In this document: positions 52,808 to 60,699 of the stretch, piece after piece
Numbering within the stretch: position 1 is the first letter of the stretch
How the letters are laid out: each line of letters opens with the position of its first letter
IMG/VR virus record: IMGVR_UViG_3300021389_000006
Source of the DNA: an uncultured virus (IMG/VR IMGVR_UViG_3300021389_000006)
Taxonomy: Duplodnaviria; Heunggongvirae; Uroviricota; Caudoviricetes
Direction: 5' to 3' (one strand)
Length of the DNA: 64,000 nt
Program-made: the position numbers and the translations under genes
Notes under the pieces: model-generated
Told to the model about the DNA's origin: nothing
Seen by the model: the letters and a program-made list of their open reading frames with translations, nothing else
The model's database searches: none

Positions 52808-55800
52808 ATGGCAAGATGTCCAAATAAAAATACTGCAGAGTATAAAGCATTACAAGATGTATTTCAAACAGAAGTACAAACTAATAATGTTATAAATACA
52901 TGGCAAGATATTAATAACTCAGATAAATTTCCTACTCCGGTAGAAGCTACTGAAATGATTAAAGAACAGAAAGTTGCTTTTGCATTAAAGCAAAAAGAGT
53001 TTGCTGTTAGTCTATTAGATAATTTGCGTAGAGAAAAAATTGGACATACTTATCAAGGACAGTTTCTTATAAATCATTCTAATCCACAAACCAGAGAGTT
53101 TGATGCAATGTTTCTGGATGCAAATGTAAAAAGATTATATAGATACTTAAGAATAAACAATATACCAGCAGACACTATTACATTACAAAAAACTCCTATG
53201 ACATATAGGTTGATTGTTAATGATGATATGTTTACTAACAAAGATATAATTGAGTCATCAAGATCATGGGATACTAATAGATCTAGAGAAGTGGTAATGC
53301 ATTTGAAGAGAATGTTTCCACAAGTTAATGTACAAATGTTAAGTGTATCTAAAGCAGCAGAGATGTTTGCTAACTTCCCAGACTGGAAGAAAAGTAATGT
53401 CAAGTTTAAAGATGTAAAATCTTTCTACGTTGACGGTACTGCATACTTAATTAAAGGTAGAGTTACTGACGAGACAGCAATTGAAGAAATGCTACACCCA
53501 ATTGTAGATGCAATTAAAGTAGATAATGCAGAGTTGTTTAATGGTTTATTAGCAGAAGCTAGTAAATCTTTTCCTGAAATGGTTCAACAAATTAAAGCTG
53601 AGTATAATCAAAACACTAGAAACTTTAGTGATACTGAAAGAGATCTAGAGATTGTTACTCAAGCCCTAACAAGACATTTTAAAAAGGAATATGAAACACA
53701 ACCTACTAAAGGATTCTTAGATAGGGTGAATGAAATGATGGAGTGGTTTATGAATCTTATTGATAATCTAAGTCAATATTTAACTGGTAGACCTTTATCT
53801 GTTAGAGATATAAATCCAAGCGGTAACTTAAGTGATATTGCTAAACTTCTTAATACAGAAGGGATACAGTTTAAATTAGAGAGTAGAGCCAATGGTAAAA
53901 TAAGATTTAGTCTTTCTCCTGAAAAGAAAAAACAAGTTGATCAGGCTTTGTCTGAAGCTAATGGTGTTCAAGCGGAAGTAATTAAAAGTTTATTCCATGT
54001 AGCTAACTCATCAGAAGTTGAGGTCAACTCATTATCTGGTAGTAGATTTAAAACGGATGAAGAAATAAACAGAAAAGATACAGGAGATACTATAGTAATT
54101 CTAAATGAAGAAGACCATACATATTATGATATAACTGATGGTGAACAGTATACATCAGTTACTACAGCAATTAAAGGTACACTTAAAAATCAAGAAGATG
54201 TACAGTTAAATTTAGATATTGGTAATGATGTAGATGCTTTATTAGATGCATTAGTAACTCACCGTAGTGTTGAAGATGTGTTTGATAAAATGAAAATTGT
54301 AGATCTAGAGACTGCTAAATCTGTTTATAATACACTAGAAACTACATTGGCTAATATAATGCCAGAAGGATCTGTAGCACTATCACAAGTTGTAGTGTTT
54401 GATAAACAAACTAAAATGGCTGGTACAGCTGATTTAGTAATTATAGATAAGAATGGTTTTATTAAAATTGTAGATTTAAAGACTACAAAAAATTCATTGA
54501 AGTCTTTTACTACAGAAGATACAAAGGTAGGTAGAAAGCAAACCAAATACTATGATAAAGAATGGGCCCTAAATGAAGATAGTTTATTAAAACAAGCAGG
54601 AATAGATAAATTATCTACCAGAGGTCAACATAACCTACAAGTAAATATCTATAGAAGAATGTTTCAAAACATGGGCTATGATGTATACCAGGGAGATTAT
54701 GCTGCTTCTACTTTTCATTTAGTTGCTGATATTAGTGGTAAAGGAAAGAATCAAAAGTTTAATGGTACTATTAAGTCTGATCAATGGGTAGACCATCCTA
54801 TATCTCAAAATATAGATATGGTAAACATGTTAGTTCCAATTAATCCTGACTCAGCAAAAGCAGATCAGCTTGATGAGTTGACTAAGGATATGGAAGACAA
54901 ACTTATGGATCCTGACATTACTCCAGCTGATGTAATACAAGAAGATGAAAACACAGCTGAAACTGTTACACCAAGACCAGAGCAACCAGCATATGATACT
55001 ATAAGTGGGGTACTAAAGGACTATCAATTATCACTGGTAAATAAGATAGATCTATTAGAAGCAAAAGGAATAGCTAAAGCATCTATATTTATAGACAGAA
55101 CTAAAGATGAAGCTATAGAGCAACTTGCTTCTACTATTGCTTTTATTAATATTGCTATGTCTGAAGGGCCTATAGCAAGATCAACAGCATACTCTGAGTT
55201 ATTACAAGACTCATTAAGACAAATAAGAAAGTTTAGTAAATACATTCAAGATCCAAAAAACTTTGCTAAGCCAGAATACATTACTTATGTATTAAACTTT
55301 GATAAATATATAAAGACATTCCAAGGATTACATAGCATAGAATCAACAGCAGAATTAAATGCTACTCAAAGATCTTTAATTCTTTCTTTAAAAATAGAGC
55401 TCAATAAATTAACAGGTGGTAGTACAGAAAATGGTGGTTTAATAAATGAGGCAATTGATAGTTATGTAAAAGAAGTTATTAGGCTTAAGTCTAATAAAGA
55501 TTTTGGAGGTGAAGGAAGCTACTTTAGTGAAGCAGACTTAGACTTATTATTAAAAGAAGCCTATGATATATCTTCTGCTGATTTATATACTAGAGATCTG
55601 GCTACACAGGGTGTAGAAGGACCAGCAAATAAAGGATCAGGTACTATTCTAGCCTTAATGGATAAAATATACAAAGCAAAAAAACAAGAACTATTAGATA
55701 AAGTTGCAGTAAGAGAGAGCACTATTAAAGCTGCAGGTAATAAGGTAATTAAGTTAACTCCTAATGCTAACCGTAATACTGCATATAACTTCATGTTAGT

Positions 55801-58624
55801 CTTTGATGAAAATGGAGAGTTTACAGGAAACTATGTTAAAAAGATTGGTCAACAATACTATAATAAACAAGAAGAATTGAGAGGTGTGTTATATGATAAT
55901 GATGGTACACCATATCAGTATGAAGAAATATTACAGTCTGATCTAGAAGAGTTGATGAAGACTAAGGAAGGACGTGCAAAAATAGAATACAATAAAGATC
56001 TTGCAGAAAAGAAAGCTAAGTTTAGTGAATTCTTTAGAGCAGAAAGAACAACAGATGGTCAGTATGATACAGGAGAATATCATACATATACTCAAGAGTT
56101 TATGGATGCCAGAGATAAAATGGAATACTATGTTCCTGGTAAAGATGGAAGTCCGTTTGGTAATTGGTATAGAAAACCACGTGTGTCTGATGTTGCATAT
56201 GCTAAATATGAAGCAAAGTATTACAAAGTAAATGAATATACTAAAGCAGTAAGAGTGGATGGTCAACCTACTGGAGCTATAGTACCTGGTCAAACATACC
56301 GCTCACCAAAAGTTAAGTATAGAGTAGCATTAGAAAAAACAAATCCAGTACAAGGTTTATCTATAGATATGACTAGCTCACAGTATAGGAGCATTATGAA
56401 TCCTACTGATGCACTAGGAGTAGCACAAAAAGAGTTCTATCAACTGTATGTACAGTATTTTGAAGATGAACTTCTTGCAATGCTACCACAGAATACAAAA
56501 AATAATATGTTGGGTAGAGTTCCTTTAGTAAGGAATGCTACTATAAACACAATGAAGAAAGAGTCTACTCTTTGGAACAAGCTGTATGCTAGAACAGTTA
56601 GTAGTAAAGCATGGAATATGTTTAATCAAACCTCAACACAAAAAGGTGTAATGGTTGATCCTATATCAGGTTATATAGTAGAACAAATGCCTATCTTCTA
56701 TACTGGTAGACCAAAGGTTGATGGTGAGATGGAGCAAGTAGAAAAAGAAAAGAAAACCTTACAAGATAAGTTTAAAAAGGGAGAGATAACTCAGAACAAA
56801 TATGATATAGATATAGCTGCCATAAATGGTAAGCTAGCTAGACTTAGATCAACTCCTAGTCAAGGAGAAATAAGTACTGACTTAGCAACTAGCTTAATTA
56901 AGTTTAGTGCAATGGCAGAAAACTATGAGACAATGGGGACCATTGATGATACTTTAAATGCTATGCTTAAAGTAATAGAAAAAAGAGCATATAAACCATC
57001 ACCATCATCAGGTCTAGGTTTTGTAGATAAAGTAAAAGGAGCTGTAGGTATTACACCTAAGAGTAAATATGCTAAGAATGATAACACCATAAGAAGAGCT
57101 CAGAAGTGGATGAGCATGGTTTACTATGACAATGAAAACATAACCAAAGGTGCAGCAGATAAAATAGCTGAAGGTATTATACAACTATCATCTTTATCTT
57201 ATGTAGCATTTAACCCTTTTGGTAACTTTAATAACTACTTGATTGGTAGAGTAAACAACAACATAGAATTACTAGCAGGTAGATTTGTAAGTAGAGAAGC
57301 ACAGCTAAGAGCAACAAGAGAGTTTAATAAAAGAGCACTTCCAGATTTAGTTTCAAGAACAGGAGCTGCATTAAAAGATGCAACAGATGTTTTAACATTA
57401 GGTAAAATACCAGGTTTAAAGTCTTCTGAGTATGATCCAAAGAGAGCTAATAGTAAGTATGAGGCTTTTGTTGATATGTTTAGAATGATGGATAAAATGT
57501 CTGAGCTACGTGAACAAGGTGCAGATACATCAGAAGGTAAGACATGGTTTGAAAGAGCATCTGAATGGGGTTATGTAATGCAAGATGCAGCAGAATACAA
57601 TGTACAAACTAAGATGGGTATGGCTGTATTAATGGATACCACATTAAAGAATAGTGCAACAGGTGAGACATTATCTTTATATGATGCTTTTACATATGAT
57701 GCTGCTTCTCATACAAATAAAATTAAGGATGGTTATGATACAGTTGTACTTAAGAATGGAAAAGAAACACCTTACACTGATGAGTTTAGATATGAGCTAA
57801 GAAATAAAATTAGAGAAATCAACAAACAAATCCATGGTAACTATGCTAGAGATGATAGAATGGTTTTACAACAAAGAACGTTAGGTAAGCTAGCTGTTCA
57901 GTTTAAAAAATGGGTAGCACCAGCTATTAGAGCAAGATACCAAAGAGAATACTTTGATGAAAACTTAGGGTGGATGGAAGGAAGGTATAGATCAGCTATG
58001 CAATTCTTTAACTACATGGGTCAGCAAATTAAAAAAGGCAACATGGAGTTTAGTACTTATGGAAAAGGGTTTATGGAAAGTAGAGAAGGCTATGATGGAA
58101 CTGGAGGTAATGCAGACCAACGTGCACAGAATAAACTTTTTGGGTTTTATAGAACTATGGGTGAGATAGCTATAATGTCAAGTGCATTATTAATTAATGC
58201 TATCTTAAGTAATTTGCTAGCAGGTGAGGGAGATGATACTGACTTAGAAAGAAGAATGAAAAACTTGACTAAGTATCAAGTAAACAGACTGTACAAAGAG
58301 ATGGTATTATTTATGCCTTGGTTCCCAGATGGTGGTAAACAAGTGTTCCAGCAATTTGGTAATCCTGTTGCAGCCACAAGAACTTTTGGTGAGTTATCTG
58401 AACTATTAGGAATGACAATGGTAACAGGATACAAAGGATTAAAACTTAAGTCTGGTTTAATTGATGAAGATGATTTCTATTTAGATAGCAGTATAGTTTA
58501 TCAAAGAGGTAAGAAAAGAGGTGAGCTTAAATTATATAAAAACTTTAAAGATGTTTTCCCTATAGTATATAGTATACAAAAATGGGAGTCATATTTAACT
58601 AATGATGATTTCTACATAAAATAA
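52808..58624 (+). CDS. Giant ejected protein with PD-(D/E)XK (RecB-like) nuclease domain and degenerate zincin
   Basis: N-terminal CPNKNTAEYKAL; AGTADLVIIDKNGFIKIVDLKT and a downstream LQVNIY (QxxxY); EEMLH in place of HExxH at 53483-53497. Confidence 0.7.
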   Translation: MARCPNKNTAEYKALQDVFQTEVQTNNVINTWQDINNSDKFPTPVEATEMIKEQKVAFALKQKEFAVSLLDNLRREKIGHTYQGQFLINHSNPQTREFDAMFLDANVKRLYRYLRINNIPADTITLQKTPMTYRLIVNDDMFTNKDIIESSRSWDTNRSREVVMHLKRMFPQVNVQMLSVSKAAEMFANFPDWKKSNVKFKDVKSFYVDGTAYLIKGRVTDETAIEEMLHPIVDAIKVDNAELFNGLLAEASKSFPEMVQQIKAEYNQNTRNFSDTERDLEIVTQALTRHFKKEYETQPTKGFLDRVNEMMEWFMNLIDNLSQYLTGRPLSVRDINPSGNLSDIAKLLNTEGIQFKLESRANGKIRFSLSPEKKKQVDQALSEANGVQAEVIKSLFHVANSSEVEVNSLSGSRFKTDEEINRKDTGDTIVILNEEDHTYYDITDGEQYTSVTTAIKGTLKNQEDVQLNLDIGNDVDALLDALVTHRSVEDVFDKMKIVDLETAKSVYNTLETTLANIMPEGSVALSQVVVFDKQTKMAGTADLVIIDKNGFIKIVDLKTTKNSLKSFTTEDTKVGRKQTKYYDKEWALNEDSLLKQAGIDKLSTRGQHNLQVNIYRRMFQNMGYDVYQGDYAASTFHLVADISGKGKNQKFNGTIKSDQWVDHPISQNIDMVNMLVPINPDSAKADQLDELTKDMEDKLMDPDITPADVIQEDENTAETVTPRPEQPAYDTISGVLKDYQLSLVNKIDLLEAKGIAKASIFIDRTKDEAIEQLASTIAFINIAMSEGPIARSTAYSELLQDSLRQIRKFSKYIQDPKNFAKPEYITYVLNFDKYIKTFQGLHSIESTAELNATQRSLILSLKIELNKLTGGSTENGGLINEAIDSYVKEVIRLKSNKDFGGEGSYFSEADLDLLLKEAYDISSADLYTRDLATQGVEGPANKGSGTILALMDKIYKAKKQELLDKVAVRESTIKAAGNKVIKLTPNANRNTAYNFMLVFDENGEFTGNYVKKIGQQYYNKQEELRGVLYDNDGTPYQYEEILQSDLEELMKTKEGRAKIEYNKDLAEKKAKFSEFFRAERTTDGQYDTGEYHTYTQEFMDARDKMEYYVPGKDGSPFGNWYRKPRVSDVAYAKYEAKYYKVNEYTKAVRVDGQPTGAIVPGQTYRSPKVKYRVALEKTNPVQGLSIDMTSSQYRSIMNPTDALGVAQKEFYQLYVQYFEDELLAMLPQNTKNNMLGRVPLVRNATINTMKKESTLWNKLYARTVSSKAWNMFNQTSTQKGVMVDPISGYIVEQMPIFYTGRPKVDGEMEQVEKEKKTLQDKFKKGEITQNKYDIDIAAINGKLARLRSTPSQGEISTDLATSLIKFSAMAENYETMGTIDDTLNAMLKVIEKRAYKPSPSSGLGFVDKVKGAVGITPKSKYAKNDNTIRRAQKWMSMVYYDNENITKGAADKIAEGIIQLSSLSYVAFNPFGNFNNYLIGRVNNNIELLAGRFVSREAQLRATREFNKRALPDLVSRTGAALKDATDVLTLGKIPGLKSSEYDPKRANSKYEAFVDMFRMMDKMSELREQGADTSEGKTWFERASEWGYVMQDAAEYNVQTKMGMAVLMDTTLKNSATGETLSLYDAFTYDAASHTNKIKDGYDTVVLKNGKETPYTDEFRYELRNKIREINKQIHGNYARDDRMVLQQRTLGKLAVQFKKWVAPAIRARYQREYFDENLGWMEGRYRSAMQFFNYMGQQIKKGNMEFSTYGKGFMESREGYDGTGGNADQRAQNKLFGFYRTMGEIAIMSSALLINAILSNLLAGEGDDTDLERRMKNLTKYQVNRLYKEMVLFMPWFPDGGKQVFQQFGNPVAATRTFGELSELLGMTMVTGYKGLKLKSGLIDEDDFYLDSSIVYQRGKKRGELKLYKNFKDVFPIVYSIQKWESYLTNDDFYIK

Positions 58625-58673
58625 GATTATCAGCCAAATTTGCAGTAAAATTATTTTTTGGGATCAATTAGAT

Positions 58674-58684
58674 TGTGTATATTA
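58674..58684 (+). promoter_or_regulatory. Promoter motif variant TGTGTATATTA
   Basis: One mismatch to the recurrent motif; upstream of the envelope cassette. Confidence 0.5.
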
Positions 58685-58727
58685 TTATATAAACCAGCAA
58701 TAAATTTGAACAAATTAATTCATATAT

Positions 58728-59981
58728 ATGAAAAATTACTTAGTATGGCTGGTTTTTATTTTTCTATTACCCACTAATTCTTATAGTCAACTTATATCTG
58801 ATCCATTATCAGATAAAGAAACTAAGAAACTTAGACAAGGTTTTCAGAGCAAACAATTTTTTAAAGGTCTGTATAATGACTTTTTGAAATATGGAACTGT
58901 TTATGCAGCTGGTGATATAAACAATTCAGTAGAAGCTGATGAGCCAACTTATTTTGTTAGAACTAATCCCAATGGTTCTTTATATTCTATTCCTGAAGTA
59001 ATAGATGTTACTGAAAAATTTCCTTTTGATTATAGATATGGTTTTGGTATACGTAAACTTGCAAGGTTTGGTTATGAAAGAAAACCTAGAAACTACTATG
59101 ATGGTACAGAAGATCAATTAGCTTTTTCTGCACCAACCTCTGCTCTTAAGGGTTTAGAATATCAATTTCATTTTGAGAGAGAAAGATGGAGAGGTGAGTT
59201 ATTTCAAAATCATAGATTCTTTTTAAAGCATACAGGTAAATATAATATAGTTAAGATTGAGTCAAGAGAAGTAGGCAAAATTAACTTAGCTTACCAATCT
59301 GCTGAAGCAAGATTGAGGTTGCCTATAGGCAAAAAAGATAAGTTTAGTGTATCAGCTGGTGTAATCTACCGTACTCATGAGCGTGCATATGGTTATAATC
59401 CAATTGAAATATGGTTGAATGAGCAAGATGAGGATGGCTTTGCAGTAAACCCATGGTACACTTTAGGCTTTGAATATGGTTATGATGACATCTACTTTAA
59501 TGAGACTGATGAGAATGGCAATGAAGTATCTGACTGGTATTGGATAGATCCTGATGGTAATAGAGTAGCAGATACAGACTTAGAGTTTAGAGAAACAATC
59601 TTTAGAGATTTAATGCAAAGATTTAATAGAGAAGCATGGGACTTGTTAGATCCTTTTGGTGAGATTGCACCAATTGTAGGAATGGATTTTTACCATTATA
59701 AGAGTAATTTTTGGATACATGCGTATGCAAATTATATATTACCTTATCATAAATATATAAAAGGAGATGAAGAAGTATCTTATTTAAACAGAAACAACTG
59801 GGGTAAAGGTGGTCTTATGCAAGACTCAGAACTAGAGCAGTGGAGTGATTATTCTTTTGGTACAAACTTTGGCTGGAAGATCAATAAGAACCTAGGTGTA
59901 TTTATAGAAGGAGAATATGCAAAGATGTGGGATAGTGAATTATTCAATACATCTTTTGGACTTAATTATACAATTAAATAA
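58728..59981 (+). CDS. Putative outer-membrane beta-barrel protein
   Basis: Sec signal peptide MKNYLVWLVFIFLLPTNSYS, aromatic-rich alternating strands, and C-terminal FGTNFGWKINKNLGVFIEGEY...FNTSFGLNYTIK resembling a BAM-type terminal strand. Confidence 0.7.
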   Translation: MKNYLVWLVFIFLLPTNSYSQLISDPLSDKETKKLRQGFQSKQFFKGLYNDFLKYGTVYAAGDINNSVEADEPTYFVRTNPNGSLYSIPEVIDVTEKFPFDYRYGFGIRKLARFGYERKPRNYYDGTEDQLAFSAPTSALKGLEYQFHFERERWRGELFQNHRFFLKHTGKYNIVKIESREVGKINLAYQSAEARLRLPIGKKDKFSVSAGVIYRTHERAYGYNPIEIWLNEQDEDGFAVNPWYTLGFEYGYDDIYFNETDENGNEVSDWYWIDPDGNRVADTDLEFRETIFRDLMQRFNREAWDLLDPFGEIAPIVGMDFYHYKSNFWIHAYANYILPYHKYIKGDEEVSYLNRNNWGKGGLMQDSELEQWSDYSFGTNFGWKINKNLGVFIEGEYAKMWDSELFNTSFGLNYTIK

Positions 59982-59990
59982 AAGTAAAAA

Positions 59991-60278
59991 ATGAAAGGAG
60001 CACCTCAAATAGGAGAAGATACTAAAGTAACTTTAGATTTTAAAACAATTGGAATGATAGTAGGATTTGTAATCTCCCTATCAACTATGTGGTTTACACT
60101 TAAAGCAGACATAGCTTTAGCAATGGAAAGACCAGAACCTACAATAGAACGAGTTGAGTATGATTTAAAAGATGAATTAGTAAGACAAACTATAATGGAT
60201 ACGCAAGAGGATGTAGATCTTATTCTAAGCAAATTAGAAAAGCTAGAAGAAAGAGTTTACGAATTGAGCAAAAAATAA
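59991..60278 (+). CDS. Single-TM membrane protein with C-terminal coiled coil
   Basis: TM segment TIGMIVGFVISLSTMWFTL; heptad-like C-terminus VDLILSKLEKLEERVYEL. Confidence 0.65.
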   Translation: MKGAPQIGEDTKVTLDFKTIGMIVGFVISLSTMWFTLKADIALAMERPEPTIERVEYDLKDELVRQTIMDTQEDVDLILSKLEKLEERVYELSKK

Positions 60279-60282
60279 TATT

Positions 60283-60699
60283 ATGAAAAGAATCTTATTG
60301 TTCATTGTAGCACTGTTTATTACAACAACGATACAAGGCCAAGAGTGGCTAAGTGATGATAGTTTTGAAGATGCTATTAGTGGTCAATCAGGTTTTGATG
60401 ATGATGATAACATTGTTGTTGTAGAATTTTGGGCTGAGTTTAATAAAGACAATGCTTTTTTAGAGTGGGAGAGAGTTGCAAAAATTGATGGTGTAAGATA
60501 TTACAGAGCCAACATAGCAGTTTGTCCTGAGCTAAAAGATAAGTTTAGAATTAGAATGGTCCCTACCATACTTATATTTGCTGGAGGGGACGCATTCATA
60601 AAATTCAAAGCTAAGGCAGGACTTGATCTTGTTTGTCCTGTTGATTATCCTAAACTAGTTAGGGCTATAGAAGTAGTTAAGGAAGAAGCAAGCTTCTAA
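60283..60699 (+). CDS. Exported thioredoxin-fold protein lacking CxxC
   Basis: Signal peptide MKRILLFIVALFITTTIQG; VVVEFWAEFN replaces the WCxxC site; the FRIRMVPTILIF cis-Pro motif is retained. Confidence 0.7.
   Translation: MKRILLFIVALFITTTIQGQEWLSDDSFEDAISGQSGFDDDDNIVVVEFWAEFNKDNAFLEWERVAKIDGVRYYRANIAVCPELKDKFRIRMVPTILIFAGGDAFIKFKAKAGLDLVCPVDYPKLVRAIEVVKEEASF

Follow-up and report, generated by a model that had tools for sequence, protein, structure and literature searches.

A compact set of three genes, encoding a predicted outer-membrane beta-barrel (A), an inner-membrane coiled-coil protein (B) and an exported thioredoxin fold without the active-site cysteines (C), was found to be a linked and horizontally mobile unit, which is optional in phages and has been retained by bacteria. 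The folds, linkage, mobility, optional presence and bacterial retention are directly supported by the results presented here. We tentatively propose, as the best of several possible readings, that the trio is an optional trans-envelope module which guards the infected cell or its progeny from further phages, or relays a signal to lysis timing.

The window (the whole stretch of 64,000 nucleotides that was analysed) represents the virion module of a crAss-like phage, as judged by PHROGs matches to virion proteins upstream of the trio, and crAss capsid and ring proteins are encoded in a complete relative (G008). Giant genes of 4,576 and 1,938 aa lie upstream of the trio, nrdAB is convergent from downstream, and the 3' end of gene C overlaps nrdA by 4 nt. 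Within the 1,938-aa gene (window 52808-58624), a PD-(D/E)XK nuclease-like stretch was seen at residues about 427-624. One 14.5-kb contig spans the trio, with 129 differences over 5.3 kb. The three genes are on one strand and, as the first-pass annotation had stated, tightly spaced, with gaps of 9 and 4 nt (Table 1), and all three fit in 2 kb.

Table 1. Positions in the window of the three genes and of the motif that precedes them
Feature	Position	Strand	Basis
Gene A, 417 aa: signal peptide, N-terminal helices and predicted outer-membrane beta-barrel	58728..59981	+	ORF, AlphaFold2
Gene B, 95 aa: single TM helix and coiled coil	59991..60278	+	Hydropathy, heptads
Gene C, 138 aa: exported thioredoxin fold (predicted)	60283..60699	+	Pfam Thioredoxin, E 9e-5
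Conserved non-coding motif, TATATTAT..TATA.ACCA	58673..58699	+	About 50 nt before gene A

The annotation had also placed the genes behind a promoter-like motif of their own, and this claim was upheld in part. The motif upstream of gene A is kept in same-backbone relatives and shares a TATATTA core with sites before virion genes, and it is probably a phage promoter, as a weak variant of the virion-gene motif. When a matrix trained without it was used, it ranked 14/127,962 in the window, but low in two relatives (428/226,366 in G008 and 3,420/232,276 in G002), and a strictly late promoter for the trio was not confirmed. Since the motif is a weak variant and a similar site also precedes nrdB, late timing is unsupported. 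A recurrent TTTGTATATTAT...TATA motif upstream of virion-arm genes (window 2394, 4048, 12062, 16289, 30054, 63646 and 63733), which is kept in G002 and G008, is itself likely to be a phage promoter.

The mature product of gene A was modelled by AlphaFold2 with a mean pLDDT of 86.7, and it contains two N-terminal helices and 12 long membrane strands with alternating faces, as counted from the DSSP line. Strands 2 and 3 are joined by a 31-residue loop (111-141), and strands 7 and 8 by a 92-residue insertion (218-309), which is acidic, rich in aromatic residues and has a net charge of -18; the motifs DEDG, DENGNE and DPDG are located there at residues 234, 261 and 274. The usual topology rule for barrels places the loop in the periplasm and the insertion outside the cell. 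NanC was the best Foldseek match (E 7.5e-6), and EstA, OpcA, NanC, Tsx and others were matched in VIA with Z of 9.3-9.9 and rmsd of 4.5-6.3. NanC (Z 9.5, rmsd 4.6 over 153 residues) and Tsx (Z 9.3, rmsd 5.8 over 185 residues) are tied with unrelated barrels, and with 4-10% identity in the top VIA rows the fold matches hold at class level only. The nearest named clusters in the ESM Atlas are also barrel-type families, and no family was found for A in Pfam, PHROGs, NCBIfam, PADLOC or PDB sequences. With its 12 strands, alternating faces, fold matches and putative export signal, A falls into the outer-membrane barrel class. The signal peptides of A and C were judged from their hydrophobic N-termini and the conserved Gln that follows, and a Gln after the signal fits export in Bacteroidota. 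Among 42 sequences under 70% identity, conservation was highest for lumen-facing residues (0.67), followed by the inner loop (0.57), lipid-facing residues (0.50) and the outer domain (0.47). H217 and H331 are conserved and are candidates for an enzyme site in A. In one complete record, gene A is apparently split in two frames (G019:C1:44172-45243). Further small barrel-like exported proteins were observed in the same gene islands (L048:10486-10911, a homolog of which has a weak OMP_b-brl match; L359:6133-6552; L094:11605-12174).

Protein B is composed of a short N-terminal tail, one TM helix, a Pro linker, a conserved ExxxKDxxxR motif and a coiled coil. Its single hydrophobic segment starts at residue 19, the heptad repeat covers 64-92, K18 before the helix is 96% conserved, and Cys is absent in 155/159 sequences. 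The topology is predicted to be N-in and C-out, and the layout agrees with that of an i-spanin (type II inner-membrane protein with a periplasmic coiled coil), as predicted from hydropathy, the heptads, the Lys and the cytoplasmic-type MshEN fusion described below. The named ESM Atlas matches (DUF2730, DUF7365 and DUF2746, all under 0.9) are leads only; DUF2730 is described as the releasin of Mu (bioRxiv 2024.01.23.576932). Longer B genes were considered as B-C fusions and rejected, as they keep the signal peptide of C, occur on single contigs and sit among obvious chimeras.

The model of protein C is a thioredoxin fold (pLDDT 84.0, Foldseek E 1e-6). In the profile match to Trx, WAEFN aligns to WCGPC and the cis-Pro position is kept, and CxxC is absent from every C homolog of the first 174 loci. 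P94 and N57 are conserved in 100% and 98% of 53 dereplicated sequences, respectively; most C proteins have one or two Cys, and no Cys column reaches 80% conservation. Because C is predicted to be exported and lacks CxxC, it was rejected as an electron donor for the neighbouring RNR. The C of one subclade (L129, L130, L133, L136, L137 and L157) has a lipobox-like Cys in the signal region in addition to the usual Gln site and may be a lipoprotein. The first-pass annotation had described a signal-peptide barrel with an acidic loop, a single-TM coiled-coil protein and a Trx fold with WAEFN in place of WCxxC, and the models and matches agree with all three descriptions.

The three genes are strongly linked. 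When A was used as the query, B and C were present in 77/80 viral loci, and the three misses end inside A. In a larger set of 174 loci, which comprised the A-query loci, distant relatives (about 30% identity) and eight genome-collection matches, all three genes were found in 155, all on one strand. B stands directly before C in all 155, A adjoins B in 73, C adjoins A in 6, and A lies apart in 76. The other 19 A-loci are mostly truncated, and in one (L016) B was removed by the ORF filter; five A-loci with at least 4 kb downstream have no B or C in the flank, and L304 carries B alone. In the reciprocal search with a B homolog, all three genes were present in 75/80 loci and in 54/54 of those with full flanks. 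The earlier proposal of a trans-envelope complex had been made dependent on co-occurrence of the genes elsewhere and on a barrel fold of the 417-aa protein; since both were found, it has passed these two tests. The pairwise distance correlations among A, B and C were 0.34-0.63 over 128 loci and, in 26 close loci, no better than those with NrdA, so the mirror-distance test is weak. A complex prediction with A, two copies of B (36-95) and C as partner gave a score of 0.01, which carries no weight either way. We infer a physical complex of A, B and C from genetics alone.

Judging by neighbouring genes, the trio occurs on crAss-like, myovirus-like and other backbones, among them baseplate-bearing and portal-capsid ones, and A is 56-80% identical across unrelated phage backbones. 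A quick tree, with backbone labels that we assigned from neighbouring genes, has different backbones intermingled in a single starred clade, which is suggestive of transfer. Clustering of the homologs of A gave 2,422 at 90% and 357 at 50%. Although the module is widespread among uncultured phages of the ocean, A, B and C had no match among deposited (cultured) phages.

The trio is also missing from some close relatives. For example, contig L377 corresponds to the trio-bearing G004 in gene order (NrdA 96% identical), and the trio is missing at that site with nothing in its place, although relocation of the trio is possible as the contig is short. In G012 (91% complete; 58,000/58,776 bases read), whose NrdA is 93% identical to that of a trio-bearing relative, A, B and C were not found, nor was any lipoprotein by pattern. 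Among nine records at least 90% complete, most of which were chosen for having no trio near the endolysin, A is present in six (split in one) and absent from three. In bacteria, the trio was found on chromosomal contigs of two Flavobacteriaceae assemblies of the same genus, where it follows a nuclease gene at a shared site (L455:8278-10172; L456:1-1768); in one of the two (G021), the contig is 27.8 kb long and has otherwise housekeeping-type genes, as named from sequence. The dN/dS values of the bacterial copies (0.30, 0.36 and 0.29) indicate purifying selection. Between the two, synonymous divergence is 0.12 in the nuclease and climbs to 1.33 in C, and the bacterial copies nest among phage copies in the quick tree. 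Such copies are rare: 61 genomes of the genus gave 2 strong matches, and among 301 genomes of the family G021 itself was the only one. The bacterial contigs stop within C or 170 nt past it, and a prophage may lie further on. A protective role agrees better than a lethal one with the optional presence of the trio, its transfer and its retention in bacteria, and its absence without a substitute in relatives argues against an essential role in breaking the outer membrane.

In many phages, however, the trio lies beside lysis genes. Of 59 loci that were dereplicated at 90% and had flanks of at least 2.5 kb, 33 have a recognised endolysin in these flanks, always co-directional, and it is adjacent to the trio in 17, compared with a mean of 5.7 and a maximum of 13 in 2,000 shuffles. 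With dereplication at 80%, the adjacency was 10/29 against a shuffled mean of 3.2, and at 70% it was 3/11 against 1.0 (132/2,000 shuffles). The adjacent slot is filled by an M15 peptidase, an amidase or a third, unrelated family, and DUF5675 neighbours were not counted as endolysins. In G004, the trio is inside the lysis cluster, between a small membrane-protein gene and an amidase plus holin, with no lipoprotein gene nearby. Of 48 endolysin-seeded lineages, with seeds from trio-bearing phages, 25 hold the trio, five hold part of it, and 18 have none within 5 kb. Mutual exclusion of the trio and canonical spanins was looked for and not found, as none of these 18 loci showed a spanin pair. This neighbourhood would fit either lysis tuning, as in T4 T/RI, or protection of the progeny. 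At L350:5459-6408 and many M15 endolysin loci, in phages with and without the trio, the endolysin is flanked by series of small and strongly basic ORFs; they are candidates for cationic membrane-active peptides or DNA-binding proteins.

The same neighbourhood is what mainly favours a non-canonical spanin, in which B is the coiled-coil inner-membrane subunit, the barrel and thioredoxin stand in for the lipoprotein of the outer membrane, and the two membranes are drawn together once the endolysin has acted. We consider this rather unlikely. The spanin survey leaves it possible that an OMP could act as o-spanin (PMC6139136), and crAss-like phage lysis is attributed to spanins and lysins in PMC10136315. 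On the other hand, the trio is lost without replacement in close relatives, and the bacteria that keep it show no lysis genes in its vicinity. In the lineage of this window, about 40 kb separate the trio from the amidase (endolysin), the holin is 5-6 kb beyond nrdAB, and no endolysin of the profiled families was found in any of the 26 loci of the MshEN clade described below, in which a 3-TM holin-like gene occurs in 3/26. According to PMC6139136, 507/528 two-component spanins have a periplasmic Cys in at least one subunit and 4% have none, whereas nearly all B proteins have none and most C proteins have one or two. A lipoprotein subunit is also lacking: a strict lipobox was found in only 1/154 C and 1/184 A, and at 10/245 B genes the overlapping lipobox ORF was in all cases C itself, with the Cys in the signal region. 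A lipoprotein-like gene lies inside or adjoins the trio in 39/230 loci. Neither A, B nor C has the u-spanin layout of an N-terminal lipobox and a C-terminal TM helix, and in a few genomes the trio is accompanied by small lipoproteins of this kind of topology. Finally, a spanin role would leave the outer domain of A and the cytoplasmic extensions of B unexplained. Short lipoproteins (62-72 aa) with a C-terminal hydrophobic helix, a u-spanin layout and very short linkers were observed in 6/447 stretches scanned (L176:1262-1480; L314:4786, beside the trio; L410:10682; L413:10296), and they are not conserved in G008.

Distant clades carry additional parts. In one of them, B has an N-terminal MshEN-like domain, which is absent from B of this window and was scored above the cut-off of NF053729 in 7/7 tested. 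The MshEN c-di-GMP receptor is described as tandem 24-residue motifs of the RLGxxLLxxGLLxxxxLxxxLxxQ type (PMC5013675); compared with these, the motifs here are degenerate, with the first Arg replaced by K, T, M or Q and one Gln replaced. Type IV pilin genes directly follow C in 12/26 loci of this clade by a strict motif and in 15 by clustering. In large phages with MshEN-like B (L207-L230; e.g. L220:8712-9601), tandem pilin-like genes were observed, three to four per locus by clustering, and one such gene tested was above the PF07963 cut-off. Near the trio in 7/26 loci of the clade, there is a membrane protein with Popeye and cyclic-nucleotide-binding domains (L228:6992-7639; L088:10764-11417). 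In another distant clade, a Cys-rich secreted protein directly follows A in 76/94 loci of a second set (e.g. L118:7017-7715), without a Pfam or NCBIfam match; we take it to have an LDL-receptor-repeat-like start, acidic beta-rich repeats and a T9SS-like tail. A lipoprotein family of 186-189 aa is found in 25/254 loci, always inside the trio (A-B) or directly after it (L060:7163-7723; L214:7051-7620; L260:5436-6002), and is a possible fourth part.

These exported neighbours, which differ by clade, raise the idea that the trio anchors or exports surface proteins encoded by the phage (pilins, the protein with the T9SS-like tail and lipoproteins) and alters the adhesion of the infected cell. We regard it as improbable, since such neighbours are missing from the window and most of its closest relatives, the neighbours are mutually unrelated, and the plugged 12-stranded lumen would presumably be narrow. 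A solute channel is improbable as well. Here A would resemble NanC or Tsx and admit small acidic or nucleoside solutes in support of phage replication, with B and C as accessories; the ranking of NanC and Tsx among the fold matches, the polar and conserved lumen and the nearby nrdAB in 42/75 close loci favour it, but those matches are at class level only, nrdA is near in 0/70 distant loci, and, as far as we know, channels of the NanC/Tsx type need no inner-membrane coiled coil. Least probable of all is that the trio is not one machine and that a B-C pair and a separately acting barrel are merely co-regulated in an envelope-gene island, as the frequent separation of A from B-C and the modest distance correlations might suggest, because all three are absent together in L377 and G012, were captured together by bacteria, and A is present in every fully flanked B-locus.

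As an optional trans-envelope module, the trio can be pictured as follows, where we infer the export, topology, contacts, timing and defensive role from the features above. A would be folded into the outer membrane with its acidic domain outside, and its inner loop would plug or gate the lumen. C, catalytically inactive, would act as an adaptor in the periplasm and hold its partners in the thioredoxin groove, and B would anchor the chain in the inner membrane and reach the cytoplasm. A chain could thus run from the outer domain through the lumen and inner loop to adaptor C and the single-pass anchor with its conserved or extended cytoplasmic end. The module may serve in defence, either by keeping further phages from adsorbing to the infected cell or delivering their DNA, or by shielding the progeny; receptor blocking that protects progeny has been described (bioRxiv 2024.03.05.583538). 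Alternatively, an outside signal may be passed on to delay lysis, much as in the case of holin T and antiholin RI of T4.

Several features count for the defensive reading. First, the 92-residue outer domain together with the conserved lumen and inner loop of A gives a sensor-like anatomy. Second, one clade has the MshEN-like B and the downstream pilins. Third, the absences in L377 and G012 and the records without A indicate that the trio is optional. Fourth, the genes behave as a unit and have been retained by bacteria. Against it, a receptor-specific blocker would be expected to diverge, yet A is well conserved across backbones; adjacency to the endolysin is equally explained by a lytic role; and the trio has no match in PADLOC. 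The ends of the bacterial contigs, the degenerate MshEN-like motifs, the five A-loci without B or C and the solitary B also count against it. Among the roles that the first-pass annotation had offered, exclusion or receptor masking gained from the optional presence, bacterial capture and outer domain, spanin-like disruption gained from the neighbourhood and lost on several other results, and the nutrient channel was supported least. A more specific version is unlikely in our view. In it, free phage or some other external cue would be sensed by a gated receptor in the outer membrane, and the dead thioredoxin would relay this to a transducer in the inner membrane, which would set the timing of lysis or stop DNA from entering; host c-di-GMP and phage pilins would be wired in by one lineage, and bacteria would have captured the system as a defence. 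If the trio is a defensive or lysis-timing relay, it would affect how blooms of marine Flavobacteriia are lysed; if it is lytic, it would answer how phages without spanins cross the outer membrane, a question raised in PMC6139136.

Compared with known systems, the A-B-C composition is outside the known kinds. In agreement with the first-pass annotation, no description of such a set was found in the literature searched, in which subscription papers were thinly covered, and we know of no established class of phage-encoded barrels that have an inner-membrane partner of their own. Two-component spanins such as lambda Rz/Rz1 share with B a type II inner-membrane protein with a periplasmic coiled coil, they often lie beside endolysin and holin, as the trio does in some lineages, and like the trio they have an outer-membrane-bound partner (PMC6139136). 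In contrast to Rz/Rz1, the trio has three parts, no lipoprotein subunit, no periplasmic Cys in B and an integral barrel with a large outer domain, and it is optional and kept by bacteria. In T4, according to PMC11413866, holin T has a small cytoplasmic domain, one helix and a periplasmic domain, and its partner, antiholin RI, is exported with a cleavable signal; B and C have the same predicted topology of a single-pass N-in protein and an exported soluble partner, and both systems are linked to lysis control, in the trio by its neighbourhood. However, B has only 95 aa, separate holins are present in trio phages, C has a thioredoxin fold, T4 has no barrel partner, and no holin or antiholin family in Pfam, PHROGs or NCBIfam matched B or C. 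Classical thioredoxins (TrxA/TrxC) have the fold, cis-Pro position and profile match in common with C, but C is predicted to be exported and has lost both active-site cysteines in every homolog checked. The 12-stranded barrel fold class is common to A and to NanC, Tsx, autotransporter beta-domains and OMPLA, from which A differs by about 10% identity or less, a high rmsd and the lack of a family match. Superinfection-exclusion blockers such as T5 Llp and the Pseudomonas prophage Zip are, like the trio, optional phage genes acting at the host envelope, and one trio clade is tied to pilins and a c-di-GMP-type domain; Llp and Zip are single small proteins that bind one host protein, whereas the trio is a conserved three-gene set with a barrel of its own.
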